Positions 3,001 through 51,062 of a stretch of DNA of 64,000 bases are shown here, one piece after another. The DNA is from Candidatus Omnitrophota bacterium (GTDB lineage Bacteria; Omnitrophota; Omnitrophia; Omnitrophales; Aquincolibacteriaceae): contig JAKLIQ010000007.1 of NCBI GenBank assembly GCA_022709525.1, positions 49,720 through 113,719 on the forward strand, read 5' to 3'. Numbering within the stretch: the stretch's first letter is position 1; every line of letters begins with the position of its first letter. The position numbers and the translations under genes are program-made. Below the pieces are notes generated by a model. The model was not told the origin of the DNA, made no database searches, and saw only the letters and a program-made list of their open reading frames with translations.

Positions 3001-6000
3001 AAGTGTCAATAAACACCGTTCGTACGTGGATTCGCGGCTCCAAACAACCGAGGGTTTAGGGACCGAGGATGAAGTGGTCGATACAGCTCCTCTTACGGAG
3101 GCCGAGGCGCTTTCCGCCGAAGAAGTAGCAGAGGACACCGCGCTCGGCGGGGTTGTTGGCGCCGGAGCCGCTTTAGGTAAATCGCTTGGAACGCTTCTCG
3201 CTTTGAATATGGCCGATCCCAAATGGCAGGGCGCCATGATCAGCCATATCCGGCGCTGGGTGAACGGAGTGCTTCAAAGCGAACTTTATACGGTGGAATC
3301 TAACGATCTTACAGAATCCCGGTCGATCGGTTTTGATGTGGAAGATGGCAGCGTGGAATATATTCATGAGCTTACCATTGACGATCCGACCATCCGCGCG
3401 AGCATTATCGGAAATATGGCGACGGATGCGTCCTTAAAGAAAACGATCACCTACACCGTTTCGTTCGACCAGCTTCCGGATCTTGAGGCGCGCGTGAGCG
3501 GTTATCAGCGCGTTTTCCGCCGCACAGCCATTGCCGAACTTTTCCTCACCGTTTTAAATCGAAGCGCTACCGATGAGGAATTAGCGAATTGGGACAGCAC
3601 CGGGCTTTCGATCGAACGGATCAGCCAGGCCCTTGCGGGCAGCGCGGAATTTCGCGGGGATAGTATCCGGACGATGTACCAGGAGATCCTTGGGCGCGAA
3701 GCGACGGAGGCGGAATATCAGGCCGCGCTCAGCTCAGAGCTTACGCTGGATCAGATCGCCGCTCAGATCTATACCACTTCCGATTATCGCAGGATCGCGG
3801 TCTCCGCGATGTATCAGGAGATGTTCGGCGAAGACATCCCCTCGGCAACACTTGATTTTTACATGAATGATCCTGCCGCAAAAAATTTGACCGTCAACCA
3901 GATCCGGGAAGCTTTTACAGAGCTTGACGGCTATCGCGAACAGGCCATCTCCCAATTGATCGTTCAGCTCTACGGACGGACCCCGCATGCAGCTAATGCT
4001 GCGGAGAACTATGCCGGCGAAGTTGAGACTTGGATGGCAAGCGGCCTTTCGCTTGAAGCTATTGAAGAAGCGATGAAAAACGCTCCGGAATATAAAACGC
4101 AGATCATCGAAGGTTATTTCAGGACCTATCTGAATTATACGGATGAGCAGATTATTGCCGAGGCTGACCGCATTGAGGCTTTAGCGAATAGCACCCAGAC
4201 GCTCGATCAGATCAAGGACGGCATCTTGAATGGCCACGAATATCGATCGCTTATCGTTAAGGATCTTCTCGAGGAGATTTGGGGCAGTATTTGGGGAGAA
4301 AACGGAAATATTTTCGGCCAAAACCTGATCGAAAAATATGTTACAGAGGCAGAGATCAATCGATGGGCTAGCACGACGCTGACCATGAGCGAGATCCAGG
4401 AAGCTGTTATGGACACCTTTGATTATCGTTTTGAGGCCGTCACCGTTTGGTATCGTGATCTTCTTGGATATACCGACGCACAAATCGAAAACTCGTATCA
4501 GATGGAAATTACGATATGGGCCAATGGAACCGGATATCCGGGGGGCAGCGGGAAGCTCACTCTCGCGCAGGTAAAAGCTTATCTCATGACGACACCTCGA
4601 TACCGCCAGTATCAGATCCGCACTTATTATGAAGATCTTCTAGGACGTCCGGCGAGACAGTGGGAGGTAAATCACTGGGATAATTCCGCCTGGAGCCTGG
4701 AGGAGATCGAAGGCAAGATCCTTGAGAGCCAAGAATACCGGAAAAAGATGATCTCGGGTTATTACGGCAGTCTTTTAGGTCTTACTGACTCCCAGATCGC
4801 GACCGATACGATCCAGGCAGAGATTCAAAGCTGGGCCGGTAGAACTTACCTGACGCTTGATGATATCGCGAACGAGCTCAAAGGTCAGCATTCTGTGACG
4901 GGATTGAATTATCGCCGGCAGCAGATCACTGCCATGTACCAGGAATTGCTTGGGCGGGTCCACTCCGAGCAGATCGAGGCATTCGCCACCGGGACCATGT
5001 TGCTCTACGAGATCCGGAATCAGATCATGAGCGGCCAGGCCTACAAAACCCAGTTCATCCAGAATTCGTATCTGGCCATGATTGGCCGCGCTGCCAACGT
5101 CGATGAAGTTGCCGCGCTGATCGGCAAGAGCTGTGAAGAGATCACGTTGTATCTCTATGGCACTGATGCTTATCGGCGGAGAGCCGTGACTTCTTTTTAT
5201 AGGGACCTTCTCGGCCGCGAGCCGGAAACAGGAGCGGTCACTTACTGGGTTACCGTAAAAAAGAACGTGGGTAATGTTACCCGCCTATGGACGGTCGAGG
5301 AGATCAAAAACTACTTTTTAGAAACCGAAGAATATTCCAATAGAGTCGTCAATGGTTATTACCAAGAGCTATTGGGCCGTTCGGCGACGAAGGGTGAAAA
5401 GTCATCGGCATACGCAACGCTTTCTAACAAAACTCAGACTTTCGAGGGTATTCGGACTGCCATTATCAATAGCGCAGAATACCGTAAGAAGATCATTACG
5501 GGATACTATAACGATATTTTGCTTCGCCCTCCTGATACGGAAGGCCTTAACTACTGGGTGGGAACAGAGCTCTCACTTGCCGAGATCGAGGAGGATTTCT
5601 ACGGAACCCGGGAATACCGGAATCGTATGGGGGCCGAGTCTTTTGTCGCAAGCGTTACAGATATTTATCAAACGCTTACGGGGCGCCCCCCCACGCAGGC
5701 CGAGCTAAATTATTGGCTTGCCACCGACATTACGACTGTACCCACTAGCAAGTCGGACCCTAACTATGCCCGTTATTGGTATACAGTCCCTTCGGGTATC
5801 CGGACGGAAGTTCGAAAATCCGAGGCCGGCCGCCGGTTTGCTATCGAAAAATATTATCGTGAAATGTTAGGTATCACCGACTATTGGGGAGTGCCAGGCC
5901 GTTTTATACCCAGCATCGATTCTTATATGGGGACAAACCCTGATACTAAAAAGACTTATACCCTCGACGAAGTCAAAGCCGCGATCCAAAAGCTTATGGC

Positions 6001-9000
6001 CTATAAAGATCGAACGCTCCGTAGTTATTTTGTCACCTATCTCGGCCGCGTCGCTACGGAAAACGAGGTTCGAAGCTTAGTTAAAAATGGCGATTGGGGG
6101 AATGTCGATTTGTCCAGTCTTGAAGAACAATTCAAAAAATGTTCGGTGACGACCTACGATTTTAAGCTTTCGGACGGTACTAATTTTCATTTTGGCTCCG
6201 TTGGTACGGAAAGCAAGACCTATCAACTCAACAAACTTTATCAGAAACTTTTAGGGCGTAATGCAACGGAGGCGGAAAGAAATGCCTGGAATCCCGCGGC
6301 TGTAAAGATCGAAGATCTAGAGAAATCGATGAAAGCAAGCAATTTGGAATATCGCGGCCGCGAAATAAAAACGGCTTATAAAGATCTTTTGGGGATCACG
6401 CCTTCCGATGCCGAAGTGAACCGCTGGCTTGCTAGCGGATTATCTGCGGATACGGTTAAGGGCCTTATTGCCGGCGCAGCCCCCTCGCGCTGGCGCGCTG
6501 CCAGCAGTTACTACCAGCAGCTTCTGAACCGGACTCCGTCCACCGCAGAGATCTACGCTTTGTGTTCGACGGGGAAGACGTTCGACCAGATGCGCAAGAG
6601 CATTGAGGACGGAACGGAATACCGCACGTTGATCGTCGGTCAATATTATGAAACGTTATTGGGACGTCCGGGGAGCGCCTCGGAGATCGCAGGGTGGGTG
6701 AACCAAGACCTGATGCTTTCCGAGATCGAGGCCGATTTTAAACAGGCGCCTGAATACAGAAGCCACCAGATCAACGCAGTTTATCAGGAAGTGCTGGGGC
6801 GGTTAGCCACAACAAATGAGATGACCGCGGCGCAGGCGATCCTGACGGATGCGTTTGAAAATCCGCCGGCGGATCCCGCTCAAACCGCTCTTGAAGTCGG
6901 ATTAGCCGCTATACGCGCCCGCCTTGTCACGCGCCAGGAGTATCGCGCGAAACAGATCGCTGAAGCCTGGACATCCGCTTTTGGAAACGCGCCGAGCGAT
7001 TCCACGCTGAATTACTGGAAATCTTCCACGATGGGGTTGCGGGAAATGACCCAATTATTCTCGGTCTTAAGCGAAGCTTTGCCGGGGGTTACCGAAACGG
7101 TCCAATCGCAATTGACCGGGGTTCAACGTATCGCTTGCGGTTCAAGCAGCGCGACTAACTGCACCCGGAACGGATCCGATGCCGCGAACAGTACGACGAA
7201 TTGGACGCGCGGGTGGATGCAATCGGGAACCGGCCTTTACACATATTGGCAGTCGGATTATTCGACAACGGGGCCCGCTTATTATCGAATGGATTTTGGA
7301 GATCCCGGGGCCACCAGCTGGGAATTGTCGCTTGATGTGCAGAATCATAACATCAGAAATACCAAACCCCCTCTTGCGGGCACCTATTTTGAGATCGAGG
7401 CCCAGATCTGCCCTCTGGAATCCTGCACACAGGATTCGCAATGGATCTCGGCAGGCACTATCCAGATCCCGGCAACCGAATCCGAACAGACGGGAACCTA
7501 CCGGTTTGATACCGCCGCGCCTATCACAGGCCAGCACCTCGTGCGCTTTAAATGGAAGAATGACCAAGCGGACAATACGGGAGATAACAATCTCCAGATC
7601 AATCTCGTGAAGCTTTCATCGCTTGTCTATGCGAGGGAAGCTGAAGTTAACGAGATCTGGAGCGATAGCCATCCTGTCATTACTTCAGCCGCTGAAGCTT
7701 TAACGGCACGGTATCAGGCCGCCGGTCTTGGGGCTTCTCCGACCGCGGCTCAGCTTGCGGCTTACCGGGCCGGGCTCTCAGAAGACGAACAAAGCGTTTA
7801 TGACGCACTCGTCGAAACGGTTGCCGCTAACAGCGCCGAAAACCGGGAGGCGGGGATCCGTCAAATGTATCAACTCCTTAGAGGCGAGGCTCCGGATGAG
7901 ACGACTTTGGAGCAATGGCAAACGTCGAGTCTTACGCTGAACGAGATCGAAGGGCGGCTTATTGACGGCGCCGGCTATATCAAAAACGTTGTTTATAAAG
8001 TGGATGCTTACGGGGATGGCAGTTTGGTGCTCGGACGGACTTTTGATCCTACGAGCGGCAAAGTGGAATATTTTGGCCAGCGACAGCTTACGGACGCGGC
8101 CGGTCTTGATCACGGCATCGGAACCAATCAACGCGCCGTAGAATTCTGGACATACAGCGGAGCGCTGAACGATCCGGCTTCCAAGATCGTGTCGCATCGG
8201 GTGACGTTGGATGTTTACGGGAATGGGACCCGCACACGCACCGCATCATGGACGGTCGTCAACGGCCAGGATGTTGCCGGAAGCGCGGCCTTCGAAGAAA
8301 CTCGAGAGCTTTCCTGGTCGGGCGGGCTTGATCAAGGGCTGGCGGATAATACGCAACGCGCGAGTGAGACGATCCGCTACACGGACAGCACTTTTACGAC
8401 CCGCGGTTCGATCTCCTTTTCGCTGGATGTGAACGGCGATTCATCGCTTGTCCGTTCCGCCAGTTATTTTGTGAATTCCGACGGAACACGCGGAGAATTG
8501 ATCGGTTCGACCATAAAGGAGAATCGGTACGGAACGGATATTTCGGTCAGTAAGAGTTACGACGACTTAGCTTTCAGCGAAGTAAAGACTATCAGCGAGC
8601 AGGAATCCTTGGCTGACGGTACAAGCGATATTACGACGTATGAGGTTTTGGCGGACGGATCCAGGGGCTCGGCGTTAGAATATTCCAACACGCAGCAGCT
8701 CGGCGCTCTTCTTTCCCGCACGATCGTTTATACCGGTTCCAGCCGGACAGCCATTTCCCGCGCATTTGACAGCATGCAGGCGCTTATTCCCAATCGGGGT
8801 TACGACGCTTTCCGTGTCCTGCATTATCAGATTGAACCGCTCAGCGGTCTTGCCAGGACCCAGATCACCTCGGATCATTTAAGAGGCGATTACTTGATGG
8901 AGTACGTTTATAACAGTTCCGGCGCTGTGGTCGATCTCAAGACCTGGGAATTTCCTCAAAATGCCGTATCGGGCGCGCCGGAGATGACCGACACTTTGAC

Positions 9001-12000
9001 AGAAACAACGCCCTCAGCCCTTGTCGATTCCAGCATCGTGACCGACAGCGCGAGCGCTCTACCCGTTGTGATCGAAAGCTTTGACAATGTTAACCAATTG
9101 CGGTGGACACTGCAGGGTAATACTTCCATTGAGAACGGGGTTTTGAAGTTACAAGGCGGTACGGGGGGCTGGGGCGACAATGCGTTTCTTCAGTCGGTCA
9201 GTCCTATTCATAATCCAAGCTGGTCGGCAGATTTTTCGATCGCTGCGGGGGCTACGCAAACCCATCTGGCGGTGGAGGGAACCGGGACAGACGGCCGCTA
9301 CCGGCGTTTGGGGATCGTTCAGCAGTCCGCTAATCAATTAAAGGTTCAGATATACAATGCTGCTACGAACAATTGGGAATATCCCGTTCAGAATATTCCC
9401 TTTGTGGCCGGCAAAGAATACACGGTCGATTTTGAGGTGGTGAACGGAACGCTTAGTCTTTATCTGTACGAGAAAGGAACAGCTCATCCCGCCGCCTCGC
9501 TTTATTCCGTTTCAGTCCGGGATTGGGCGCAGGCGAATTTCCATACCTGGATATGGAGCGGTTCGGCGACGATCTCCGGTCTCCGTTACGGCGCGAATCC
9601 TCCGTTGCCTTCCGTTCTCCAGTCACAGGTAAATGGGGCTAACCGCGTTATTTGCTCAGGATCCAGCATGGCAAACTGCACCAGGACCGGCAACGACACT
9701 TCAACGGATGTCGGAAGATGGACAAAAGGCTGGATAGAATCGGGCACCAGCGCCTATACCTATTGGGATTCGAATACGACGGGAGCGGTTTATTATCAGA
9801 TGGATTTTGGGAGCACGCCCCAAACGACCTGGGAATTTTCAATGGATGCGCAAAATCATCCCTTCAGGACAGCTTCTCCCGTCGCTAACAGTTTTTATGA
9901 AATAGAAGCCCAGATCTGTCCGTTAACGGTTTGCACTCAGGAGTCTCAGTGGGTCTCCGCCGGGACGTTGAAGATCGCCGCGAACGATTCGCAGCAAACC
10001 GGGACGCTTCAATTTAACGCTGCCTCGGCTCTTTCCGGCCAACACACAGTCCGTTTTAAATGGAAAAATAACCTTGGGAACAGCACAAGCGATAACAATC
10101 TTCAGATCAATTCGATCCGGCTTTCCTCACTTTCTTATGCGATCCCGTCCCCGACACTAGCGACCAATCTATTGCCGCTAAACTGGACACTTCGGGGGAA
10201 CACCTCGTTGCAAAACGGCGCGTTGACGTTGCGGGGCGGTACGGCGAACTGGGGGGATAACGCCTTTCTCCAAAGCGTCAACCCTCTCAGCAACCCAAGT
10301 TGGTCCGTGGATTTTTCGATCGCCGCGGGATCTTCCGGTTTTCATGTTGCCGTGGAAGGATCAGGGGCGGATGGGAGCTATCGCCGGTTAGCGTTGGTCC
10401 AGCAATCCGCCAACAAATTACAGGTCCAGATCTGGAATAATAATCGTTGGGAGTATCCCAAGCAGAACATTTCTTTCGTGCCCGGAAGAGAATATACCGC
10501 GGATTTTGAAATGGTGAACGGAACGCTCCGGGTCTTTTTCCACGAAAAAGGCACCCCGCGTCCCGCCATAGCGACTTATTCGGTCTCTACCAGGGACTGG
10601 GCGCAGGCGAATTTCCATACGTGGATCGCTTCGGGATCTGCCGTGATCTCCGATATGCGCGTTTCATCCATGACTTACGCTTCGCAGCTTCCGCTGATCT
10701 CGCAGCTTGAAGCGATCGATCCTTCCTGGAATTTTGACGGGATCGTCGGAGTAGCGAACGGGACCCTTCAATTGACGGGGCCGGGAGGAACAGCTTATTC
10801 GCATTTCAATACGAGTTATTTGGTTCCAAGTCTCAATCCCGCTTACTCCGTCGATTTTTCACTTACCAATGTGGCCAATCCGTCATTTTATCTTGCAGTG
10901 GAGGGAGTGGGACCGAATTTAGGGAGTCCGGATAACGGAACATATCGCCGCTTCGGGATCAAAGTCGATAGCGGAATAGCGACCATCCAAGTTTTTGACG
11001 GCTCGCAGGCATGGAGCTCGGCTCTGCAGAACGTCTCCATGCGCCTTGAGGCCGGGAAAGAATATACGGCAGATTTTATCTCGCAAAACGGCGTCATCAG
11101 GATCTATCTTTACGAAAAAGGCGCGCCGCGTCCGGCTGACCCATTTTTTACCATCCAGAATACGGATTGGCAGGGCATACGGCTTCATAGCTGGATCATA
11201 AACGGAACGGCCAATATCAATGAGATCCGCACGGAGCTGAACCCTGTTTCTGTTGCTTCGAATGTTTCTACGGGAATGATTTACAATCAGAATTATGCAA
11301 GCGCCGCGCTTGGCGCAACCGTGACCGGCGGAGTGAGCGTTGAATCCGCCATCGATGGACTTCTCACCGATAGCGGCTCCACCGGATTCTGGTATGTCAA
11401 TGCTGCTCGGAACGAGAATCTAGCGGCGCTCGGCACGATCGATCTGGGTCAGCTAAGGCGGATCAACGAAATCGGTCTTCAGCTTTGGGACGGCCAAGTT
11501 GATCGGGTTTATTACAACTATAAAGTTCAGATCTCGGCGGACGGGGTCAACTGGACAACCGCTTTTGACGGAACGGGGTCTGGGACAAATTTTCAGGGCC
11601 TGCAGACCATTCAATTTGCAGAACAGGATGTCCGTTATATCCGGATCTCGGGAAGCGGCAACTCAGTGAACGCGGGCTTCCATGTTGAAGAAGTATACGC
11701 AAAACTTGTGCCGCCTTCCGCGATCGATTATGCGTCGCTTGCCATGGGTGCCCGGTTCATTCCGGCCAATCTCAACGTGGGCGCCCCGAACGCCGTTATC
11801 GATCCGGGCGTTTCAGCTACGGGCCACTACTTGTATTCTTTCCTCTGGAGTACCGCGGCAAAAAATGAAACGCTTTACGATATCGGCACTCTCGACCTTG
11901 GCCAATCCCGGACCATTAATGAGATCGGCGTTCACTTCTGGGATGGCGATAACCGCTCTTATTACAATTTCAGCGTCGAAGTTTCCACTGACAATGAACA

Positions 12001-15000
12001 TTGGACCACGGTCTTTGATGGCACGGGTTCCGGGCAAAATTATCAGGGTCTTGAAACCGTCCAATTCAACGCGCAGCAAGTCCGTTATGTCCGGATCAAA
12101 TCGAGCGGCAATACGGTCAATAACGGAGCGCATATCGAGGATATTTCAGCTCGCTACATAGAGAGTTACCAGTCCGCCGGGGCGCCGGCCCCGATCGGCG
12201 GGATCGTGGGTTATACGCATACTTATAATGTGGATTTTGGCTCCGAAGGCGGAGATACGTGGAGCATCTATGCTCCTTATGAGCAACTCGCGGGGTACGG
12301 CGTCAATTATGCCTCATCCGCGCAGGGCGCCACGCTTTTCTCCATCGCGTCGGGGCCTTCTCTCGCCGCGAACGCGATTGATGGGAATAGCGGGACTTTC
12401 TGGATTGCCGGCACCAGCGGCACGCAGAACGAACGACTTTATGAGATGGGCACGATCGACCTGGGTCAGCCCCGCAATATCAACCAGGTCTCTTTTGATT
12501 TTAGCAGCGCGAATAATCGCCTCCACTATAACTATAAGATCGAAGTGATGGACGCGACCGGCCGGTGGCAAACGGTCTTTGACGGGACGGGTTCGGGGCA
12601 GGATTATCAAGGTCGCCAGATCGTTAACTTCAATACCATCAACGCCCGGTATGTGCGCATCTGGTCCAGCGGGAACAGCCACGATACAAGCGGCGCGGCG
12701 ATCGATAACCTCGTTGTTACGCGCAGGCAGCTTGCCGGGGATGAATTGAGCGGCCTCATGGCGGAAGTCCTTGAAAACGGCGAATGGGTTTCGCTGGGTG
12801 AGCTTTCAGCCGATGGGATGTTTTCTTTTACCAAGGCGCTTTCGGGCGTTCAACAGATCCGATTTGCTTCGCCCCTGCCGGAAGATTTTTCGATCAGCGA
12901 GCTAGTGGCCTATCGCGTTTTCAGGGATCCCGGGGTCTCCACCGAAACGCTTCCTCTGATCAGCGAGACTTTTTATAAAGGGACCCGAGGTTCCGAGATT
13001 ATGGATTCCATCGCGCAATACACTTATGTCAATGGGGCGCGGACGAATTCTTCGGTGATCCAGTATTTTTATAAGGATGAAGCCGGCAACGCGCGCAGGG
13101 CGGCCGAGGCGGTCGGACATGACACATGGGAAATTTGGTATGCCGACACGCTGAATTCGCAAGGCGTCGAGCGTCATTTCCTTAATACAATTTCCGGATC
13201 GGCTTTTATGTCAACAGCCACATCCGGCTGGTCACTGGATAGCCAATCTGCCTGGGCGACGGGATCTGATTCCGGCTCTGCGTATTATCTGGCGGATTTT
13301 GGAACGGAAGGGAACGATCTTGAAATTGTTTTGAATGTTCAAAATCACGGCGCAAATCCGATCCCGGGCAGCCGGTTCGATATCAAAGTCGAGGTTTGCG
13401 TCAATACGACATGCTCGGATCCTTCCGACTGGGTTAGCCAGATCGTTTCCGTTGATGCGTCTAGGACGTCCCAGAATATCGCGGCGGTTTTCGGAGGCGG
13501 CCTGACGGGTCAGCATCAAGTTCGTGTTTCCTGGCTGAATTCAACCGAGCAGGCGACTGTCCCAGAATCATTTGCGGCGTACCGGAATAATCTTCAGATC
13601 AATTCTCTGACCTTCAATGAATTCCGGTCGGTGTCGGGTCAATGGACGCTGGATTCCAGAACTTATTATCGGGACGATAAACAAACAATCGATTACGTTT
13701 TAGAATATGACGCGGTGACCGGAGAAGCCGTATCGTATTCGAAAAATATCTACAGTGCGGCGGATGGAGTCATCGGATCAGATGATCTTGCGGCGGTTGT
13801 TCAATACAACATCAGCGGTCAAGCGGACGTCCTTGTCCCGGGAGACGCTGCCGCCGATGACATCACGGGCGTTCAGTTCACGAATCTCTGCACCGATACG
13901 GCGTTGCCGACCACCGCGAATACCCGCGAAAGCGCGTTTCTCTCCAATTTTCTCGCCAATGGTTTGGTTGCGCAGCTTGCGTCCGAGCAGTCGTTCGACA
14001 GGCTGGGTAACAAAGCCGTTCTGGTCTATCAATTTTCTTATGGGATCAACACGAACACTGCGGGGCTTATAGTTTCAACGCTCAATCCTGCGGCAGCTCT
14101 TTATCTTTCTCAGCGGATGGAATATCAGTACCGCGCGAATGGAACGCTTGAGTCGGTGGAAAATTTTATCCAGCGCGCAAGCGGCTGGGCTTTGAACACC
14201 ACCACGTTCTATCAAGCGGATGGTAACGATATCGATTATATCCAGACCCATGTAACGGGAGGCCCAGACACCTTCACCTATTACAGTTATCATGCCTCCG
14301 GAAAGTGGACGGGGGATTACCGTCTCTACATGACCGCGCGTTATTCGGAGAACGGAAATTCCGGCGAGCCGGGCGCGCTCCTGGGGAAAGCTTTCTTTAA
14401 CACGAGCTCCGCTTATATCGCAGAAGGCGAAAGCGCCGCGGGCCGGGTTTACTACGATCCTTTGAAGTATGGCTCACTCATCGTCCGCGCGGAAGACTAC
14501 CAGGCGGTTACGGATGATCTCGCGCCTCTCGCAAACCGGGAACTCGTGAACGGTCTTTTTGTCGCAAGATTTACGACCACGTATTATGACTATGACGCCG
14601 TCACAAAAGAAATGCTTTCATCTTCGTCCTATGCGACGACCTACGCCAGTGGGACCGCTGCTACGGCATGGTCCAGCACGACCGGTTATCGCGCGGACGG
14701 GCAAACTGATTATGCGGTGTCATCCGTAGGTGGAGACCCCAATAACCGGACGCGGACCCAATATAACTATTTAGAACTCGGCCACGGTCTGGATGGCATT
14801 TATCTCTACTCCGAGACAAAGAACGAACTAACGGGCGCGCTCAAATCGCGCGTTTACACAAATGCCGCTGTGGAAGCGGACCTTTTAGGGCTGATCTCCC
14901 TTGATTTTGTGAACGGGTGGCCGGCAGCTCAGTTCGCGACAGCGCTTTATGGTGTTGTCACGCTCACCGTAGAAGAATTCCCGGTCGACCAGGGCCTGGA

Positions 15001-18000
15001 TGCGCTCGGGACGCACCCTTACAGTTTGACGCTTTCAACCTATGCCGTGTCGGGGCGCTTGGCCCGAACCGATCGCTTCTATGTTGCCGAAGGGCAACGG
15101 ACGCTTGAATCGCAAACCTTTTACAAGACCGACGGAACTCGTATCGATTTCATCATCAACTGTAATGCCGCCGGAAAATACGAAAGCAAGGATGTCTATA
15201 TTTACCGCTCCGGCGCTTACAGCCATCTGCTTTATCAGACGGAGCGTTACCACCGGAGCGGGGTACTTACCATGGTATCCACCTTTACCTACTCCATAAC
15301 CGGTTCCGCGCTCCGTTTAACGTCCGTTAGCCATCCCTCGCGGAGCACAGAGACTTTTTACTATACCGCCTCGGGCATTCTCGAGCGATCGGTCATGGTC
15401 AACCACAACGGAAAAAAGCTGCAGGAGACCTTCTACGATTCCGTGACCGGCCTCAAGAACAGAGCTGTTTCTTTCGGGATGGACGGTTCGGTTATCGCCG
15501 AAGAAATCTATGAATACGATGCCGACGGGCGATTAATGAAGTCGACAAGGGCCCAGAAAGACGGGACCGGCCGGGTCATGATAACGACTTACGAAGGCCG
15601 GAAAGGTTTTGAGCGGGCGATAAGCCGCAAGACATACGCCGATGGGAGTCTTACGGATCTCGAACAGGAAACCACATCGGTTTATAACGCCGATGGCAGC
15701 CGCACGGACAAAACGATCGATCACACTGCCGATCCCGATAAAGAGAACGAGGTCTATAAGACCGTGACGGTCTATGACGCCCTGGGACAGAAGGTTTCGA
15801 GTGAAAGCTATGATAAGGCCGGCAAAAAAATCGGGGCGACTTCGAATTACACCTATGATGAGTACGGCCGGGAAAAAACCTACAAAACCTGGTCTTCTAA
15901 AGAGGGATGGCAGCTGGTCCGCATTACCCGCTACAACGATTTCGACCTCGTGACCGAACAGTGGACCGGAGACAAAACCAAATCCGTGATGGAGTATTAC
16001 AACAATTTTACCCTGAAGCGTTCGGACTATGTCGTTTACACGCTTGGGGAAGCGGATATGTTTGGCTGGTCAACCTATAACATTATGGGCGATGAGACCG
16101 GCACGGATTCCGGGCTTATTCCCGGAGGACCGACTGACCGTATGGTCAAAGCTGCGGAAGCTGCCGCAGCTGCAGCCCAAAAAGCGGCGGCGATTGCCCA
16201 GCAAATGGCGACCCGGGCGCAGCAGCAGGCCCAGGAAGCTCAGGATGCCGCAAACGAAGCGCAGGATCGCGCGTCAAGAGCTCAGGACCGGGCAGATGCC
16301 GCCGGCGATGCCGCAGAACGGGCTGAAAACGATATGTTGGCCGCAGAAGCCGAGCGTGATCGCGCTGAGGCGAACCGGCTTCGGGAGCAAGCGAAGGCGG
16401 AGTTGGCCACAGCAAAGCGGCTACTTGAGGAAGCCGCAAGTCTTGCGCGGTCAGCTGCTGCAGCCATGAGAGAAGCGGCGAAGATGATGGATGAGGCCTC
16501 AAAGGCGATGAAAGCGGCAGCGCAGGCCATGAAGGAAGCAACCCAGGCGATGGAGAACGCGCGTGACGCTTACGAGGCGCTGAAGGCTCTCGGAACGCTC
16601 GATGAGGATGCGATCCAGGCGACGATCGACAGTTACAGCGACAGCATCTTGTCGATGCGGGACAGTACGGCCTCCCTATTGGACAATGCGGCGAGTTTGA
16701 GTGATAGCGCCGGCAGTTTAAGGTCTTCGGCCTCCAACATGGATGATGCGGCGGACAGTTACTCCGATATGGCCACCCTGGTAGGCCTGGTTTCCGCGGA
16801 GATGTTTGGCGGGGACGCGAGCACCGGGGAAGGGGCTGTGCTTTGCGATTGGCTTTCACATATCTGTTGGGGCGACGGCTGGGCGTATTTCCAGCTTGGC
16901 GATGACAATGAAGACGGAACAGACGATTCGTTCGTGATCTTTGGCAGCCCCCGTAACGTTACCACCGGAGAAGGAACGCAGATCCATAATTGGACCCTTT
17001 CCGGCGATCAGACCGCAGCTTATTGGGATGGTATTAGCACTATGGGTGACGATGGTTTTCACTGGACCGGCCAGTGGCGTGTGACGGCGGACGGCGACAT
17101 TTTGAACGGGCAAGTGCTTTACACCTATCAGAATTCCGTTTACTACGACGGCGATCATCAGGAAATGGTCTATTACTACAATGCCGCCGGAGATCTGATC
17201 AAGGTTACCTGGGATTACGAGTATAGCGATTCCCAGATGATGAGCGATACAGAAGTCGACAACGAGGGAACTTGGTACAACACGGACTGTGCGGATGGTC
17301 TGGCGGCCTTCAACGCAGACTATGCCGCAAATCCGAACGGCGATTGGGAGCAGAACGACGACGGAACCTGGAGCTTAACAACAAAAGATATTTGCGAATC
17401 TGATGTGACTTGGGTCGGCATCATTTTCGTTATCGTTGTGATTATCATCGCGATAGTCATAACAATTGCGAGCTGGGGCACTGGGACCTGGATCGGCGTA
17501 GCAATGGTCGCCGCGGCATGGGTCTGCATTGCTGTCGCCATTGTGTGTGCTGCCATGATGATCTATAGCAAGCTGACCGGCGATGATGCGTTCGGTCTGG
17601 ATGACACCGAATGGGCGGCTTATTCCGTTCAATTTTCATGTTTGGCTATATCTTTGGGAGCTGGCGCAAGCCGTTTATGGTCGAGTACTTTTTACGCCAG
17701 CTTGGTAACCGGATTTATTAATGCTCTATTCACATACGGAATGACCGGCGATATTGGGAAAGCAATCACCGTCTTTGTTTTAAGCGTTGTTTTGAGCCTT
17801 CTCTCAAAATGGGTACCGTCTAATTACTTTATCGTTAATTTGATCGTTTATTTTGTGATCACCACGTTCGTTTATGCGCTCGCGACTTATCTGACAGCCG
17901 ACGAGGGAACCTACGACTCCTTATGGGATGCCGTGGAGGATGTCTGGGTCTATTGCCTTGTGATTGCGTTTTTTATGGCGCTCTCAGCCCGAAGCAGTAG

Positions 18001-21000
18001 TCAAACCGACGGAAATGCCCCTGGTAAAACAGACTCCACCGCCGCAAATACTCGGGTCAATTCCCTAGATATGAAGTTCAATTGGGGACAAGGCGTCATT
18101 AAATTTTTGCAGTCATCTGCTTCAATATTTTTTGACATGATTATGGCGAGCGATAAAACTGACAAGCTTCTTGGCGACAAATGGGGTCTTAAAGAATATG
18201 ACGAGGATACGCGCGAATATGAGGCGACGACAGCCGGAAAAATTGTAATGTCCGCGATGAATTTTATGGCGACGTTGAGTTACGGAAGCCCCTCGCTTAC
18301 TCTTTGGAATTTTGCTTCAGGTTTGGCGGCTGCTCTGGCGGGAACCTATGTTACCGCCAGGGAGCAAGAGAGCCTGGAGAACACGGGAATGAAGGATTAT
18401 ATTGCCCAATCGCTTGCCGGACAAATTGGAGGAGTTGTAAGCGGACTCGTTGGTATGGCTTCCAAATTGTTGCAATACGCTATCGATTCCGATGTAAGGG
18501 CAACGCTCAAGACGAATGGTTTTAGTCTGCTGGAGTTTCTAAGGGGCCGGTGGGATCCGGCGACGGGTAAATTGCAAGAAGTCACGATCGGTAAGAACGG
18601 ACTCCTGATCGTCGACAATCAATTTTTTAATAAAAAAGGAGACGTTATAGCATCGTTCCAGACCATTGGAAACGAAGCTTTTCAGTACGCAGAAAAAGAA
18701 GCTAAGGGAGCGTATGCAGTTGACGCGGCTTTTCGACAAGGGATTGCGCAACGGGGGGAGAGCGCTTTGACAATAGCGGCACTCCAAGCGGGCGCGACGT
18801 TCACTTTGTCCAAAGATGGCAAGTTGGAGAAAACAAGTTTCGTAAGCCGGGTTCTTTCGTCGCTTTTTGGCGATGTGGCTGCGGGTACGGTTACGGCAAA
18901 GTTCGGAGACTTATCGGTAACCCTCGAGCTTACCGAACAGGGGTTGCTTTCCTATGATGCTGATCGCAATGGGCAATTGGACGTCGGTTCAGCGGCATAT
19001 ACAGCTTTGGCAAGGATTTTCACGAATAATGACACAAAAACTTATGAAGGTTGCGAGAATCTAGTTCAGGATCTTCAAAAATCCCTTGGAAAAGGAGACT
19101 TGAAAGGCGTTGTGAGTGTTAAGTTTGGCGTTGCTGATTTTCGAGCGAATGGGCAGGCCTATGGCGATGTGACATTTTTAGTTTCACGGCAGAGCGTTGC
19201 GATCACCTATCAGCTTGCAGGCGCCACATGGACGGCGATAGGCGCGAATTTCCAAGGCGCTGTTCATGCGATGTTTGTTTTGGATCAGGCGTTAGTTGAG
19301 GCGGGCATTGGCCGGGTTTCGGATTTCTTCAAAAATATGAATTTTGAAATGAAAGACGGAAAGCCCAACGAGACTTTGAGTAAATTTATGAAGTTTGGCG
19401 ATTATCTGTCCAAGAACCTCGGCCGAGGAGAAAGTATAACCGCCACTTTCAATGTCAAATACAATGGAAAAGACTACAGTTTGTCTGCGACCTGGCGGCG
19501 GGGCAGCACGACCTTTGAGTTTAACGCGCGCGCGATTGATGGCAGCCGTGTATTGGTTTCTTTTACGTTTGCGACGACGACGGATGCCATGAAAGCATTC
19601 ATGGCGATTGCGGATTTTGCTGCGACTTTCGACTCCCTTGTTTTTAGTAAGGACAATCTTGGAAAGATCATTGCATTTAGGGATGGTGTTTTTGGTGCGC
19701 TTACAAAAGCGGGGCTTTCGACGGATCGACTTGACCTGACATTTACAAAAGCGGACGGGACCTCGGCCGGAACATTTACGGTATTTGCTGATCCGGGCAG
19801 GTCCGTTCTTTTTAAAGGCGCGACGATTGGCAAAGCGGGCGGGGCGCATTTGGTCCTGATGGGGGAGGCCGTGAGTTTTTCGGATGCTGTGACCGGTCTC
19901 TCGGAACTCGATACAGTCTTAAGCGGTTTCGATGGCTCTTCATCGGGGATGCAAGCGGCTATAAGAACGTTGCTTGCAAGCGACAGTTTCAAGCTTTTTT
20001 CGGGACTCGCTTTGAATTTCATGCAAGGGAATGCGTCGCTTGGTGCGGTTATGTTTGAAAGCGTGGATGGCGTGATGACCGGGCGGTTCATGAATGTCCA
20101 AGTGAATGGCGAGAAAGGTTCGGTCCGGTTGGGAGGGCGTTTTGCCGCCGATCAAGGGGGAGTCGATCAGGCGTTCAATCGTATTAACGGGATGCAGGAA
20201 AAATTGAAGAACTCGGATTTGTCTGGGGACAATGCGGAACAGCTTGCATTTGATGCTGCCTGCGAACTTCTCGGAACGGAAGGGATAGCGTCTGAAGCGG
20301 AACGGAACGCGATGGGAGAGTTCGGGGTTACCCTGTTCGAAAAACAAACTGGGTCGTCCGTCACTTTTCTCCTGACGAACCTCGGAGACGGCATGCTTGG
20401 GCTTCGGGTCCAATTGGATCTGGGAGGCGGTTTTCAGATAACTTCGGGGACCCAATACAAATTCTCTGCGAATGACCCAAGCGCGCGGCAAATAGCATTT
20501 AAGACGGGTTCAGATTGGGCAGCCGGTCTTCAGAAATATGATGTAGGAGACCGGTCGCGAGGTTCAAAGACCGGATTACGGGCGCTTCTGAAAGACGCCG
20601 CCATCTCGTGGAAGGATGAGTTGGCAGCGGCTCCCGTTCAAGGGGTCGAGCGGGTCGCCGGAATTTTAGAAATAACTTTTTCGGGAGAAAATAATACGGC
20701 TTTCAGCCGGCTTGAGTTTAGCGTCCAAAACGGCGTTATTTCCATGCAATATTTCGGACGTATTCTTGGTAACGGGTACGAAGATCTTACCTATTCAACC
20801 ACGCCGATCGAGTTTGGAGAGGGGCATGCGGATATATCCGGCGTCGATTTTGGCGTTGACCTCTATGAGGGAAATTTGCAGTTTAACGAACGGTTTGCTG
20901 GGGACATGAAAGCCCTTGGTTTGCTTAAGGACATCATCAACATGCCCGATAAACCGCGTCTGGATTCTCCGAAAGATCAGATCGGTTTCATCAGCAAAAT

Positions 21001-24000
21001 AAATCTAATGCTCGACAGTCAAGGGGTTTTGCAAGAGACCCTGGGCCAGGAGATCCTCGCCTTTGTTACCGTCGCTTTCTTCGCCGGCACTCCCCTCGAC
21101 CCGATGGGCGTTGGCGCGGATCAGAAGCAGCACATGACCTGGTCTGTTTATGATGAATTGGGAAATGTTGTCGGGCATGCCGGCAGCGTCCAAGGCAATA
21201 CTCTCAGCGTCAACCTGAAAACTCAAACAGCAACGGTTAACGGAGAAGCTTTCAGCATCAAACAAGATGAGCTTGGCAGGGTAACGCTTCAATTTTCCAT
21301 AACGGATAAAGGGAGAGAAACAACGGTCAAGGGTGTCCGTCAAGAATATAGCGTTCTTGACCTGAGCGCTTTCGATTTATCGACGCAGGGAGCCATCCTT
21401 ACCCAGTTAACGAGCATGGGCCTCATCCACAATCAGTTTGAGCTAATAGTAGGTGGGGAACTTGTTGTTGCCGGTTTTGGCGCCGAAGGAGATGTTCTTG
21501 CTTTTTATACAGCACAAATGAAGAAAGATGGTCAAGTTTGGGTAAAGAGCAAGGGAGATATTGTCACCCTGACGCCGGCAGAGGCAACGACTCTTTTAAA
21601 AGAATCAAATAGAAATCTTTATAACTTTTTGAAATTAGAATCTGGTCAGAACGTTTTCTTGAAACCGGCAAGTACGCTCGAGGGAGCTTACATGCAGGAA
21701 GAACAACAGGCGATATGGCGGGATTTGGGAACAGTGGGGATTACGCAGACGACCACAATTCTTGTGGGGACAACATTACAAACTGCCCAACCGGTTTTGT
21801 ATCAATCGCCTGGCATGGGGCAGAACGCATGGATTGTTATAGGGGGCAATGGAAATCAATATGCTTATGATCGAACAGGTCAGGGCTTTGAGGTTTATTC
21901 GGATAAGCCGGTTGAAAGTGGCGTCAAAAATGTAAGCGGCTTAAGTTCGGGAGCGCAGGAAGCCGTAGCAGGCATTCCTGCCAACTATAAAAACGCAACA
22001 ACGCAGGGTCAGATTGATCAATACGCACAGGTTACCCACACGATTACGGATTCGCAAGGCAACGTTTTGAACGGGACGGTCCTTGGCAAAGAACTTGCGA
22101 GCGTTTTTGGTCTTTATGACACCACGGTGCTTATGGCCGGTGGCCAGGCGGTTTGGCAATTCGGCGGGACTAAATTCGATGCCCTGGTCAACAAAACCAT
22201 TGTGCTTCGCGGGCTCGGAGTTAACGAAGGCCAGTACGGGGTCGTGAACGGCGGCTTTTATAAGCCCACCGCTAATCTCCTGAACGGTAAAGCCCAAACA
22301 TTAGCGGGTGTTGACGCCTATCAAAAGAGTCATCCCGAGGCTGCTCAATACAAAATCCTCAATAGCCATACCTTCACGGACGCCAAAGGGAAGCTGGTCG
22401 AAGACGGAACAGTGCTTGATCAGACGCTTTCTAACGCTATGGCTCAAATCACTGGCGCTCGGGAGCAAATTATCCTCATGAATGCGGCCGGCCAGGACAT
22501 CGGCTGGTTCTTTGGATCCGATATTACAGTATTAAATCAAGCCGGCGCTGTTGTCTTCGGCATGGATATGCAGTTTAACGCGAATACAAACAAAGTGGAG
22601 CCAGTAGGGAAACAAGGCTCCGCCCAAGTCAATGAAAACGGCACTTGGAAAAACGTTACGATCTTTGGGACCCGGGACCGCATAGCCGGCACCGCCGCCT
22701 TAAATGGCGGCATCGCTGTCACAGTCCATGGCACGGATTATACGGTCCAAGGCGAGGTAAGCACTGAGCAGTCCCTGGCGATCGAAATGGCCTTAAATAA
22801 CGCTAATGTGATCAGCTACGAGTGGCGGAGCGCCACGGCCTCAGGCGTTGCTTTCTGGGCCAATGGGTCCCTTAACGCTTATATCGCAGATAACCAGCTT
22901 TGGGTGATCGCGCAAGACCGCAACGCCGCAGGCCAGGCCGTTTACTTCCAGCCCGCCACCGCCACGATCGCCGGAACTCTTAAAACCTACAACCGTGATG
23001 AAATGAGTTCAGAACAAGTTGCCGAACTCGATGCTGTGATCGCCAAAGACCCTGCTTTTATGAGCCATGTTTCACTGACCTTAAGCGGTAAGGGGACTAC
23101 GGTCACGGGCTCTGAATTCTATGAATTTACAGTTAATGGCGAACTCCTTGATCCTTCAAGCGTTACGGCCAATATGCTCGGTTCGATGGGTTATCTCACC
23201 TATAACAACGAGACAGTATCAGCAGGCGCAGGAAAGATCTTCTTAAGTGATGGCGCGGCGCTTTCCGCCTCCTTTGCCGCCAATGGAAGCTTTATCTGGG
23301 CTCAGGAGGGGAATACGACCGTCATTAACGGTCTTTATGTTCAAAGCGGCAAAATGAGTCTTGGGGCGAACCATGCGCTTGTCGCAAGCGGCAGCGAGAT
23401 TCGGGTGGTCGGGTCCGATGGAGTAGTGTCTTATAAAAAATCCGTATCTGTGAGCGTGAACGGAATTGCCGGAAGGACAGGCAATGACCTTGCAATTGAT
23501 GGAGAGATCGCTTTCTCGGATGGAACAACGAATTATCTCCTTGGCTTTAACGGCACCCAGCTTGTGGCGGGCCTGCGCGGCACCGACACGCTCTCTTTTA
23601 ACATGCTTAATGCAGCAACCCTTATGACCGGGAATATCACCAATATCGCCTTTATCCAGACCCAATATTACACTTACTCCCTTGACCGGATGCAAAAAGG
23701 TCTTTTTGAGACCGATCTAAGCGGCAAACGCACCCAGGGATGGAATCATGAAACGGGGACGATGCTTGTTTCCACGACCAATAAGACGCAAATCGCAGAG
23801 TGGGCCAATAAAGCGCAGGTAACCGGTGCTTCCGTAAATCTTGAGGGCGGCGGCACGATGCCCGTTGATATTAACGTAAGCTATGCAACCGAGCTTTGGG
23901 TGGGGGCAGGCGGTCTGGCCTTCTTCTTTGCCGGCAGCGATGAAATCGGCGTTTTCCAAGGAGCGCTTACGGCCGGAAGCATGGGGAACCTCAGCTCCGT

Positions 24001-50106: not shown

Positions 50107-50487
50107 GACGTTCCTGCTATACCTGAAGGGGGAGGCCAAGGCTGGATTCGCCTTCCAAAAGGGTCAAAAATCGATCAAAAATGGGCTTTTTAGCCATCCT
50201 GCCGGCCGGGATTTCTCTTTGGTCATTCTCGGGAAAAGCCGCTCTAATAGGCTCTTTTTAGGGCCGGTTTTGTAGAGAGAAAAGCGAACCCGAATCTCAC
50301 CAAGTTTTATCCAAACCGTATGAGAAAGCCGCACTTTAACCGGTGCTTTTTAGGATGGATTCCTTTAGCCTTAGCCAGAGAAATCCCTCTCTAGAGAGAA
50401 TAGATACGTCTTATAATGTATCTTATGTAAAGTAGTATAGAGGGAGAGCCGAGCCTGATTTAGAACGCTTTGGGGACGCGGAAAAGA

Positions 50488-50937
50488 CTATTTGAGAGCG
50501 GCTTTGACAGCTTCCTGGATGCGTTTGCCGTCGGCTTTTCCCTGAACGGCAGGCATCAGAACTTTCATGAGTTTTCCCATGTCAGCAGGGCCTTTGGCGC
50601 CGGACGCAGCGATCGCCTTTTGAACTTCAGTTTTCAACTCGTCGTCGGATAGCTGTTTCGGCAGATAAGCTTCAAGAATGGCAAGTTCAGCCTTTTCCTT
50701 ATCCGCCAGGTCTTTGCGGCCGCCTTTTTCGAAACTCTCCAGGCTTTCCCGCCGCTGTTTGGCCTGTTTGGCGATAATACCCAGGATATCGGCGTCGTCC
50801 GCCTTGTCCTTTTTCGTCTGGATTAGATAGTTCCCGAGGGCGCTTTTAAGCATCCGCAAGGTCGAGACCTTGACCGCATCTTTGGCCTTCATGGCGTCGA
50901 TAACATCTTTTTCGATCCGTTCTTGTAAGCTCATCAC
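50488..50937 (-). CDS. yqeY: GatB/YqeY domain protein
   Basis: MMSLQERIEKDVIDAMKAKDAVKVSTLRMLKSAL...AELAILEAYLPKQLSDDELKTEVQKAIAASGAKGPADMGKLMKVLMPAVQGKADGKRIQEAVKAAL. Confidence 0.9.
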   Translation of the reverse strand: MMSLQERIEKDVIDAMKAKDAVKVSTLRMLKSALGNYLIQTKKDKADDADILGIIAKQAKQRRESLESFEKGGRKDLADKEKAELAILEAYLPKQLSDDELKTEVQKAIAASGAKGPADMGKLMKVLMPAVQGKADGKRIQEAVKAALK

Positions 50938-51020
50938 TTAACTCCTTTGTGTGAAGGTGGTTTATAGTTTATAAAACAAGTTCCTGGGCTGTCAGTCTTC
51001 AGCTTTCAGTCATCAGCGAA

Positions 51021-51057: not shown

Positions 51058-51062
51058 ATTAT

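Follow-up and report, generated by a model that had tools for sequence, protein, structure and literature searches.

The giant proteins of Omnitrophota have been described under the names "Dockerin-type" and "Archaeovorin" (West-Roberts et al., 2023 preprint, 10.1101/2023.11.21.568195; Nielsen & Lui, 2026 preprint, 10.64898/2026.06.07.730766). Published examples combine discoidin repeats, a long N-terminal part free of transmembrane (TM) segments, TM anchors and a divergent DEAD-type ATPase, and RHS-like antiparallel beta structures have been reported in them (10.1101/2023.11.21.568195). Closed shells built from YD repeats are known from Rhs proteins, the BC components of Tc toxins and teneurins. 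The teneurin shell has 78 strands in ~800 aa (PMC5851990), and mosquito SGS1 (PDB 8fjp) forms a complete shell of ~100 strands, with an Rhs core, an aspartyl-protease site and TM helices stored inside as cargo (PMC9935623).

I will refer to the whole stretch of DNA analyzed, 64,000 nucleotides from a Candidatus Omnitrophota bacterium, as the window. A first-pass annotation had drawn attention to degenerate YD repeats followed by a long coiled coil at nt 14100-16620.

The giant protein and its relatives

The flagged region, aa 4689-5529 of the giant ORF, has no gene of its own. The frame is intact over 40 kb, with no stop before its first nucleotide, and the N-terminal repeat unit runs past the edge of the window, so the true N-terminus lies outside it. 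The call for this ORF on the source metagenome contig (JGI 3300010429 Ga0116241_10000211) is a gene of 18,667 residues. All the parts listed in Table 1 are segments of this one protein.

Table 1 Features of the giant ORF. Nucleotides are numbered by the window and residues by the ORF.
Feature	Nucleotides	Strand	Residues	Basis or remark
Giant ORF	35..40771	+	13,578 aa in window	ORF list; frame 2; 5' end open
Three discoidin (F5/8 type C, galactose-binding-like) domains	11198..12712	+	~3722-4226	5' of the YD region
Isolated DUF2963/YD-type hairpin unit, RTYYRDDKQTIDYVLEYDAVTGEAV	13658..13732	+	4542-4566	
~300-aa super-repeat, two copies	13703..15688	+	4557-4851 and 4852-5218	
Weak YD-like patch	14114..14323	+	4694-4763	Iterated YD profile, E 1.8e-4 (120-aa tiles)
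Weak YD-like patch	15038..15286	+	5002-5084	Iterated YD profile, E 4.8e-4
Core YD-repeat array	15326..16024	+	5098-5330	~9 units of ~22-31 aa
Motif YEYDADGRL	15509..15535	+	5159	Frame 2
Motif VYNADGSRTD	15680..15709	+	5216	Frame 2
Motif VTVYDALGQKV	15764..15796	+	5244	Frame 2
Motif YTYDEYGRE	15848..15874	+	5272	Frame 2
Ala-rich heptad coiled coil	16145..16804	+	5371-5590	3.5-residue periodicity; heptad print-out
Acidic Asp/Gly/Trp/Tyr-rich juxtamembrane domain	16805..17410	+	5591-5792 (~200 aa)	Composition
Faint YD-like patch	17144..17272	+	5704-5746	YD profile, E 0.005
First TM cluster	17411..17998	+	5793-5988	Kyte-Doolittle; 5 strong hydrophobic segments, 5-7 possible TM helices
Second TM cluster	27443..27628	+	9137-9198	Kyte-Doolittle; 3-4 TM helices
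SF2 ATPase/helicase-like segment (ResIII/DEAD), borderline	31634..31969	+	10534-10645	

The resemblance to the published Omnitrophota giants is considerable. Like them, the protein exceeds 10,000 aa and has, on its N-terminal side, a long stretch without TM segments in which discoidin (F5_F8_type_C) repeats occur; its TM clusters lie toward the C-terminal part, a divergent DEAD-type ATPase-like segment comes after them, and the sequence is largely unannotatable and strongly lineage-specific. The discoidin domains, probably glycan-binding modules, are matched in three stretches by Pfam (F5_F8_type_C_2 at 121.6 bits, F5_F8_type_C at 114 bits), and the region repeats internally at 38% identity. 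The ATPase-like segment barely passes ResIII (22.6 bits; gathering score 22.5), with DEAD at 18.7 bits, under its 26; it lies among the last ~4,400 aa of the protein, which are Ala/Leu/Glu-rich. Unlike the published giants, the protein shows no dockerin, EF-hand, TSP3, C39 peptidase or SecA_DEAD in Pfam, only the borderline ResIII, and its 18,667 aa fall short of the 30,000-aa class on which those authors focus. Neither preprint describes a YD array that is followed first by an Ala-rich coiled coil and then by a TM cluster (10.1101/2023.11.21.568195; 10.64898/2026.06.07.730766). The terms "YD repeat" and "coiled" appear in the main text of neither, and RHS appears in the 2023 one only as a structural analogy.

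Homology searches found no orthologues. At one other locus (L006) the run of downstream ORF sizes is similar, a likeness by size alone. A neighboring radical-SAM gene has its closest relatives, among GTDB species representatives, in MAGs of Omnitrophota, with 66% and 58% identity, and it is from this one neighboring gene cluster that the protein is assigned, as most likely, to that phylum.

The YD-repeat array

All four YD motifs quoted in the first-pass annotation are present, and all lie in the core array. Direct family scores on this sequence are borderline: Pfam RHS_repeat matches a single stretch at 18.3 bits, under its gathering score of 22, and NCBIfam TIGR01643 (YD_repeat_2x) clears its cutoff of 15.8 by little, at 17.8 bits. 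When 1.84 billion representatives were searched exhaustively with phmmer, seven proteins were found (P0001-P0007; E 1.5e-17 to 8e-4), which align only to aa ~5014-5282, and the RHS_repeat model that falls short on the array itself is passed by six of the seven, at best with 147.8 bits. A profile made from the array and these relatives also matches Rhs and teneurin-like shells of solved structure (e.g., 7q97, E 3.7e-11). When tiles were shuffled, the iterated profile found none at E ≤ 0.1 (200 aa), and the best value in the finer 120-aa scan was 0.27.

One might suppose that the motifs are a compositional accident of Tyr/Asp/Gly-rich sequence, unrelated to YD repeats, and the subthreshold RHS_repeat score would fit such a view, as would two narrow repeat models built from the phmmer matches, which recovered only the YEYDADGRL unit, and a phmmer search of PDB sequences, which found nothing. 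But the supposition is effectively refuted by the strength of the best phmmer match in so large a collection, the RHS_repeat positivity of the matches themselves and the shuffled-tile null; the structure model and Foldseek results, described below, also agree with homology. The repeats can thus be taken as genuine, very divergent members of the YD/Rhs repeat superfamily.

Upstream of the core array, YD-like sequence thins out. The two copies of the super-repeat align at 25.6% identity (self-BLASTP, aa 4852-5218 against 4557-4911, E 8e-7), and when read through they show matching landmarks, Ala/Leu-rich and probably helical stretches being interleaved with YD-like hairpins. The isolated unit at their start scores 28.4 bits with DUF2963 (gathering score 22.6, Pfam), a match that counts toward YD-type identity because in the relatives the same repeats are matched by both DUF2963 and RHS_repeat. 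The alignments of P0002 and P0007 begin at aa 5017 and 5048. Over nt 14100-15000, the 5' half of the flagged range, YD-like sequence is weak and patchy only. In total, the discontinuous matches to the YD profile sum to ~400 aa; the tyrosine-rich, partly YD-like region as a whole covers ~800 aa (aa ~4540-5330).

The seven relatives are the only ones detectable by sequence, at 27-34% identity over 90-180 aa. They share with the array the Y-x-Y-D-x-x-G hairpin unit of ~22-28 aa, and have no sequence in common with the protein outside the repeats. Their Pfam matches above gathering score are RHS_repeat and DUF2963, with SlpA in addition in P0003 and none in P0001; no Rhs core or toxin domain is among them. 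Some are stand-alone proteins, secreted or lipoprotein-like, and the others are long arrays of nothing but repeats. Three of them (P0005-P0007), stand-alone proteins of ~330-390 aa with N-terminal signal or lipoprotein-like hydrophobic segments, have an array as long as the present one, which aligns with them end to end, and they are too short to form a shell. The present array differs from all of these in its setting, with ~10,000 aa of a giant protein ahead of it and a coiled coil and TM helices behind it.

Evidence for and against a shell

The shells of Rhs proteins, Tc toxins and teneurins (e.g., PDB 8uy4, 8qja, 4o9x, 4igl, 6fb3, 9ifo) belong to the same repeat superfamily as the array and share its modeled local fold of consecutive antiparallel beta-hairpins. 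They also lead both the profile matches and the Foldseek matches to the AlphaFold model (E 1e-6 to 1e-4). That model, made from the single sequence, is all beta-hairpin, with a mean pLDDT of 52 that rises to 60-80 over the ~180 residues at aa ~5107-5287. The Foldseek TM-scores are 0.1-0.2, and flat single-layer OspA sheets are among the matches with similar scores. Shells need ~800-1,000 aa or more (Rhs core constructs among the matches have 1,020-1,077), as compared to ~9-13 clear units here (~230-330 aa), with a few weak patches, 16 confidently modeled strands and up to 26 predicted.

In these shells the repeats come with an Rhs-associated core that holds an aspartyl autoprotease, with a plug at the N-terminus and with cargo at the C-terminus. 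The first-pass annotation had seen no canonical core (PxxxxDPxGL) or toxin, and neither is present: all 13,578 aa lack a PxxxxDPxG[LIVMW] motif and an Rhs core (TIGR03696, NCBIfam scans). Nor is there a PAAR, VgrG, NHL or plug domain in Pfam, an aspartyl autoprotease, a delivery domain or a terminal toxin. Instead, ~8,000 aa including the two TM clusters come after the array. Since the units are few and these parts are lacking, the YD region is not a toxin cage of the Rhs/Tc/teneurin type, and the enclosure of cargo finds no support.

It is quite improbable that the region is a decayed Rhs/Tc-like toxin cassette, fused into the giant gene and now, with core and toxin lost, a non-functional or spacer-like relic. 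The repeats are indeed highly degenerate relative to RHS_repeat, the upstream patches are weaker still, and giant Omnitrophota proteins have been described as fast-evolving mosaics. However, the nearest relatives are core-less YD-repeat proteins rather than Rhs toxins, the core motif has left no trace, and the reading frame is unbroken.

A larger closed or tubular beta-spiral, folded from the whole Tyr-rich region and perhaps the faint patch beyond the coiled coil, is kept as an alternative because that region is about as long as the teneurin shell. On this view the clean array would be only the part that has been preserved best, and the coiled coil would be a helical hairpin on the outside. 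The structure would be either a core-less YD shell or a tubule of antiparallel beta-helix, with external alpha-helices at regular intervals, of the kind predicted for Omnitrophota giant proteins. YD-like patches do recur over the ~800 aa, shells top the Foldseek list, the super-repeat (probable helix plus hairpin) resembles the published RHS-like tubules with external helices (10.1101/2023.11.21.568195), and an antiparallel coil would join the two ends of YD-like sequence. I nevertheless regard this as unlikely, given how discontinuously the YD profile matches, the low TM-scores shared with flat sheets, the lack of a plug or core to close a shell, and the ~1,500 aa of the published tubules (10.1101/2023.11.21.568195). 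AlphaFold on a wider region of 856 aa was uninformative (mean pLDDT 31.9).

Coiled coil, membrane anchor and a proposed stalk

The Ala/Glu/Gln coiled coil that the first-pass annotation had reported after the repeats is real. There is no Pro in its 220 residues, Ala makes up 37% of aa 5371-5530, and hydrophobic residues recur every 3.5 positions with z = 5.3, 13.9 and 5.2 in three sub-segments (500 shuffles). The a/d positions are occupied by Ala in the first half, a pattern typical of antiparallel coils, and by Leu/Met in mid-stretch. Over the last ~60 aa the sequence turns Ser/Asp-rich but keeps the periodicity. Family scans of the stretch gave only spurious coiled-coil matches.

The first-pass annotation placed a membrane segment after the coiled coil; the first TM segment begins ~200 aa further on, beyond the range it had given. 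In between lies the acidic domain (net charge -34, 4 Cys), which has no family or PDB match; no homologues of aa 5590-6400 were found. The upstream discoidin domains hint that the YD region, coiled coil and acidic domain probably form an extracytoplasmic ectodomain, and the charge of the acidic domain, under the positive-inside rule, would put that domain outside.

Mosquito SGS1 (Foldseek rank 18) likewise has YD repeats upstream of helical segments and predicted TM helices in one polypeptide, with carbohydrate-binding domains attached. Unlike SGS1, the present array is short and without a core, and ~7,600 more residues follow the TM cluster, for which reason the cluster is read as an anchor and not as cargo.

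The YD array and coiled coil are, I think, rather probably an internal structural or adhesive stalk module of a giant membrane-anchored Omnitrophota surface protein. From N to C, three discoidin domains are followed by ~800 aa of YD/Rhs-type hairpins mixed with probably helical stretches and ending in the clean array, then by ~160-220 aa of coiled coil, the strongly acidic domain and 5-7 TM helices. The YD units would form an open, single-layer antiparallel beta-sheet rather than a closed cargo chamber, and the sheet may serve as a rigid spacer and possibly as a glycan- or protein-binding surface. The coiled coil would act as a stalk and/or oligomerization element that keeps the distal adhesive modules off the membrane anchor.

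Between the two readings offered in the first-pass annotation, a degenerate binding module or a novel arrangement, the evidence favors the former. What that annotation missed, that the flagged region belongs to the interior of a giant multi-pass membrane protein, alters the sense in which the arrangement may be called novel, giant proteins of such a kind having already been described in Omnitrophota (10.1101/2023.11.21.568195).

Layout of the giant gene and its surroundings

The stretch from nt 14100 to 16620, in which the first-pass annotation recognized YD repeats followed by a coiled coil, does not form a separate gene but corresponds to aa 4689-5529 of a 13,578-aa open reading frame (nt 35-40771, forward strand). 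The frame is open at the 5' end of the window (no stop precedes nt 35 in frame 2), and its first residues continue a tandem unit of about 117 aa, with further copies at aa ~112 and ~230. On a JGI metagenome contig of 166,670 bp (3300010429, Ga0116241_10000211), the gene call gives 18,667 residues. In the NCBI MAG GCA_035389965.1 and in an ENA assembly, contigs with the downstream genes begin just past the 3' end of the giant gene, which suggests that short-read assemblies break at it. Neither the contig nor the assembly accession turned up in the literature.

Features of the giant open reading frame (residues numbered within it) and of the genes 3' of it
Feature	Residues (aa)	Nucleotides	Strand	Remarks
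~117-aa tandem units	1-975	35-2959	+	no family match
~105-aa DUF4214/phycobilisome-linker-like units	~613-2340	1871-7054	+	
Internal duplications	2350-3737	7082-11245	+	up to 64% identity; no family assignment
Three discoidin domains	3722-4226			
YD region	~4540-5330			
YD patch	4694-4763			70 aa; iterated profile E 1.8e-4
YD patch	5002-5084			83 aa; iterated profile E 4.8e-4
YD array	5098-5300			203 aa; query of the iterated profile itself
Coiled coil	5371-5590			
Acidic juxtamembrane domain	5591-5792			
Faint YD patch 3' of coiled coil	5704-5746			43 aa; iterated profile E 0.005
TM cluster 1	5793-5988			5-7 transmembrane helices
Gly/Ala/Leu-rich segment between TM clusters	5990-9130	17999-27442	+	~3,150 aa
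TM cluster 2	9137-9198			
Ala/Leu/Glu-rich C-terminal part	9199-13578	27629-40768	+	~4,400 aa
AbiEii-like nucleotidyltransferase, then sugar-modification cluster		40927-50106	+	directly 3' of giant gene
Small YqeY-like gene		~50488-50934	-	
Minus-strand ORFs		51063-57814	-	Bat-operon-like in the two checked
VWA+TPR protein		51063-53045	-	660 aa; Bat-operon-like
BatA/VWA protein		53045-54025	-	326 aa; Bat-operon-like

The ~117-aa units, which start upstream of the window, align with one another at 32% identity across 500 aa (E 4e-54), and the ~105-aa units match DUF4214 (up to 53 bits), phycobilisome-linker and, weakly, PSD1. Tyrosine makes up 9% of aa 1501-2000, inside the region of the latter units. 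Among the internal duplications, aa 3018-3197 and 3378-3560 share 64% identity, unusually high for this protein, and aa 2350-2533 and 3189-3369 share 52-59%; a third copy, 33% identical, lies just upstream of the YD region (aa 4396-4525, nt 13220-13609). The long segment between the TM clusters gave no Pfam or NCBIfam match. Isolated YD-like motifs occur in it (YDELGNV at 7039, YAYDRTGQ at 7276 and FDASGQL at 8129), all missed by the YD profile. The C-terminal part is presumably helical, and its sole family signal is a ResIII/DEAD-like segment (aa 10534-10645), borderline for ResIII (22.6 bits, gathering score 22.5) and below the score for DEAD (18.7 bits against 26). SecA_DEAD was not reported at E <= 10, and in PDB sequences phmmer gave no significant match to the ATPase-like part.

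The sugar-modification cluster comprises a GDP-mannose 4,6-dehydratase, two tandem B12-binding radical-SAM enzymes, methyltransferases, a DegT aminotransferase, a GT2 glycosyltransferase and a C-methyltransferase. Within the GTDB species representatives, the genes nearest to the downstream radical-SAM gene belong to two Omnitrophota MAGs, at 66% and 58% identity. In a locus from an Omnitrophota MAG (L006), a radical-SAM match is followed by ORFs in a comparable succession, as judged by their sizes. The source is probably an Omnitrophota bacterium. In L006 and a second related Omnitrophota locus, L005, a giant gene is absent upstream of the common sugar-modification cluster. The window contains no rRNA or tRNA (Rfam and tRNA scans were empty) and no marker gene. 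Between 50 and 52 kb the AT skew is strongly negative, which reflects just minus-strand genes (the YqeY-like gene) and the intergenic nt 50107-51062.

Homology and fold of the YD repeats

The four YD motifs quoted in the first-pass annotation are all found in frame, at nt 15509-15874. Scores of the family models on the sequence itself are borderline. Pfam RHS_repeat (PF05593) matches a single stretch at 18.3 bits, below its gathering score of 22, and NCBIfam TIGR01643 (YD_repeat_2x) reaches 17.8 bits (cutoff 15.8); both matches surface only when a 333-aa piece is scanned. DUF2963 matches aa 4542-4566 at 28.4 bits against 22.6, the protein being scanned as 679-aa pieces.

The assignment to the YD/Rhs type is supported by an exhaustive phmmer search, the family matches of the relatives it found, matches of a profile to solved structures, and a model of the fold. 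When aa 4560-5375 were compared with 1.84 billion representative proteins, phmmer returned only seven matches (E 1.5e-17 to 8e-4), with alignments restricted to aa ~5014-5282. Six of the seven pass RHS_repeat (23-148 bits), and four of these six also pass DUF2963, which overlaps RHS_repeat wherever both stretches are reported; since they overlap, the two models recognize one and the same hairpin unit. This search is the decisive evidence for YD-repeat homology.

Other searches returned nothing: phmmer with aa 4501-5360 against PDB sequences gave no significant match, word-indexed searches with aa 4501-6000, 5000-5340 and 5590-6400 found zero relatives, and aa 4501-6000 matched nothing in collections of genome and metagenome contigs, not even the source contig. 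A profile of the array and its relatives matches solved Rhs, Tse5, Tre23 and teneurin-like chains (7q97 at E 3.7e-11, the others at 1e-6 to 1e-4). The idea that the YD motifs arose by pure chance is scarcely credible.

The AlphaFold single-sequence model of aa 4958-5375 is entirely beta-hairpin, with 26 strands and zero helices, at moderate confidence only (pLDDT 60-80 across aa ~5107-5287). The top 10 Foldseek matches to this model in the PDB are Rhs effectors, Tc BC components and teneurin-like proteins (E 8e-7 to 1e-4), with TM-scores of merely 0.1-0.2 and with flat, single-layer OspA sheets in the same list. For the modeled structure, this pattern indicates the same local architecture as in the shells and is silent on global closure. 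The repeats are a new and very divergent member of the YD-repeat superfamily.

Extent of the repeats and the question of a shell

How much of the protein is built of YD units was judged with an iterated multi-unit profile, made from the array and its relatives and run on tiles of the giant protein along with shuffled controls. Narrower models derived from the relatives' units (a 26-aa repeat HMM and an ungapped PSSM) recover the YEYDADGRL unit alone, because the giant's units differ too much in length. None of the 200-aa tiles of the shuffled controls reached E <= 0.1, and their best 120-aa tile gave E 0.27.

The YD-type shells of teneurin, Tc BC and Rhs proteins enclose a cargo, and a shell of that kind had been considered for this region. 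The recognizable repeats are too few for it. The clean array amounts to ~230 aa (about nine units of 22-31 aa, with 16 strands modeled confidently), as against ~800-1,000+ aa and 78-100 strands in real shells: ~800 residues and 78 strands in teneurin (PMC5851990), ~100 strands in the mosquito protein SGS1 (PMC9935623), and 1,020-1,077 residues in crystallized Rhs core constructs.

A larger structure, with units too divergent to be recognized, might be sought in the whole Tyr-rich region of ~800 aa: a beta-spiral, closed or tubular, like those that West-Roberts et al. (10.1101/2023.11.21.568195) predict, on which the coiled coil would form an external antiparallel hairpin. Such a structure fits the faint YD patch after the coiled coil. 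It also fits a ~300-aa super-repeat (aa 4557-4851 against 4852-5218; 25.6% identity, E 8e-7 by self-BLASTP) that interleaves hairpins with Ala/Leu-rich, probably helical stretches. Closure is opposed by the fact that only about 400 aa in total match the YD profile, in four separate, discontinuous patches, and I consider this reading unlikely, though the most serious of the alternatives. The AlphaFold model of the wider region (aa 4520-5375) was unusable (mean pLDDT 31.9).

The other marks of a toxin cage are also missing, as the first-pass annotation had observed of the core and the toxin. The core motif (regular expression P....DP.G[LIVMW]) has no match in the 13,578 aa, and the Rhs core model TIGR03696 gave none at E <= 10 in aa 4601-5855 and none at E <= 0.01 in the whole ORF. 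Pfam found no PAAR, VgrG, NHL, TcB beta-propeller, FN-plug or toxin family over the same ORF, a negative that covers the 13,578 aa downstream of the gene's first 5,089. In place of a C-terminal toxin, the array is followed by the coiled coil, the acidic domain, the TM cluster and ~7,600 more residues. The sequence 3' of the array is not cargo, and interpretation of the region as a cage is not supported. A decayed Rhs toxin cassette is an improbable account of the repeats. A few YD motifs alone are no ground for annotating an Rhs toxin; what discriminates is the core domain and the repeat count.

Coiled coil, membrane anchor and the class of giant proteins

The long coiled coil after the YD repeats, proposed on inspection, is confirmed. 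Its 220 residues contain zero prolines, alanine makes up 37% of aa 5371-5530, and hydrophobicity has a period of 3.5 residues in each of three sub-segments (z = 5.3, 13.9 and 5.2 against 500 shuffles). The a and d positions of the heptad are occupied by Ala in the first half and by Leu/Met further on. Two ORFs in other frames over this region (16146..16859, minus strand, 237 aa; 16029..16469, plus strand, 146 aa) were rejected as genes, being most readily explained as by-products of a GC-rich, repetitive run of GCN/GAR codons for Ala/Glu inside an intact 40-kb ORF. The acidic domain that follows has 202 aa and a net charge of -34, is rich in Asp, Gly, Trp and Tyr, and contains four Cys. The coiled-coil and juxtamembrane part found nothing significant in a phmmer search of PDB sequences.

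Past the glycan-binding domains come, in order, a short YD array, the heptad coiled coil, the acidic juxtamembrane domain and TM cluster 1. The reading I favor, with reasonable though far from full confidence, is that of an open YD sheet acting as spacer and a coiled-coil stalk, both outside the cytoplasm, in a giant membrane protein. An external location would follow from the discoidin and YD modules, the very acidic flank of TM cluster 1 (by the positive-inside rule) and the clustering of the rare Cys. The YD units may form an open, rigid, single-layer sheet that serves as a spacer and possibly as a binding surface, while the coiled coil would be a stalk, an oligomerization element or both, linking distal adhesive modules to the membrane anchor. 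Three of the seven relatives (P0005-P0007) are stand-alone proteins of ~330-390 aa, with N-terminal signal or lipoprotein-like hydrophobic segments, whose repeat part aligns end to end with the array.

The same elements might be combined differently, the ~800-aa YD-like region, coiled coil and TM cluster together making a core-less, cis-encoded device of the Tc/SGS1 type, but this is very improbable. It is just as hard to credit the structure that such a device implies, a hollow YD beta-spiral or tubule fused to a membrane-embedded helical bundle in one polypeptide, or the corresponding function, a conduit or membrane-insertion machine that predatory or episymbiotic Omnitrophota would use against a host without an autoproteolytic core. 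No YD chamber is known to do without that core.

The overall plan of the protein fits the published Omnitrophota giant proteins, particularly those called 'Dockerin-type' (10.1101/2023.11.21.568195). Like them, it is a very long single ORF with transmembrane regions (18,667 aa and two TM clusters here). In the 'Dockerin-type' proteins, discoidin repeats and a long N-terminal part free of TM segments are accompanied by TM anchors, after which comes a divergent DEAD-type domain, and SecA_DEAD is reported for most Omnitrophota giant proteins (10.1101/2023.11.21.568195). Discoidin repeats are common to both; no Dockerin/EF-hand/TSP3 repeats, Archaeovorin domain set or C39 peptidase was detected in the giant ORF. 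Proteins of at least 10,000 aa are common in Omnitrophota, and 94% of them have TM helices or signal peptides (10.64898/2026.06.07.730766). The protein considered here is a new member of this known class of Omnitrophota-type giant membrane proteins. Apart from the repeats, none of its parts has an orthologue in the collections searched, which is typical of the class. The order of array, Ala-rich coiled coil, acidic domain and TM cluster has no description in West-Roberts et al. (2023) or in 10.64898/2026.06.07.730766, and may be just one among many mosaic junctions in such proteins.

The best YD relative, P0001, is a 4,426-aa protein (nt 8001-21281 of locus L009) with ~780 aa of YD-like repeats of 52-aa period and no Pfam match. 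Its gene adjoins fatty-acid synthesis genes and a gene for a protein of >2,180 aa with C39 peptidase and apolipoprotein-like domains, a context that resembles published Omnitrophota giant-gene loci. Outside the repeats, P0001 has no sequence in common with the giant protein.

If the open sheet and stalk are real, the result is useful as annotation and is no discovery: it would give a fold and a plausible role, that of a spacer or adhesion sheet with a stalk, to ~700 residues of a giant protein that otherwise defies annotation. YD repeats would then be plain building material in the giant proteins of Omnitrophota, beyond their use in toxin cages. More important is the wider object, a multi-pass membrane protein of 18,667 aa that has hardly any detectable relatives among billions of sequences and belongs to a class of giant proteins with a putative function in predation or episymbiosis.
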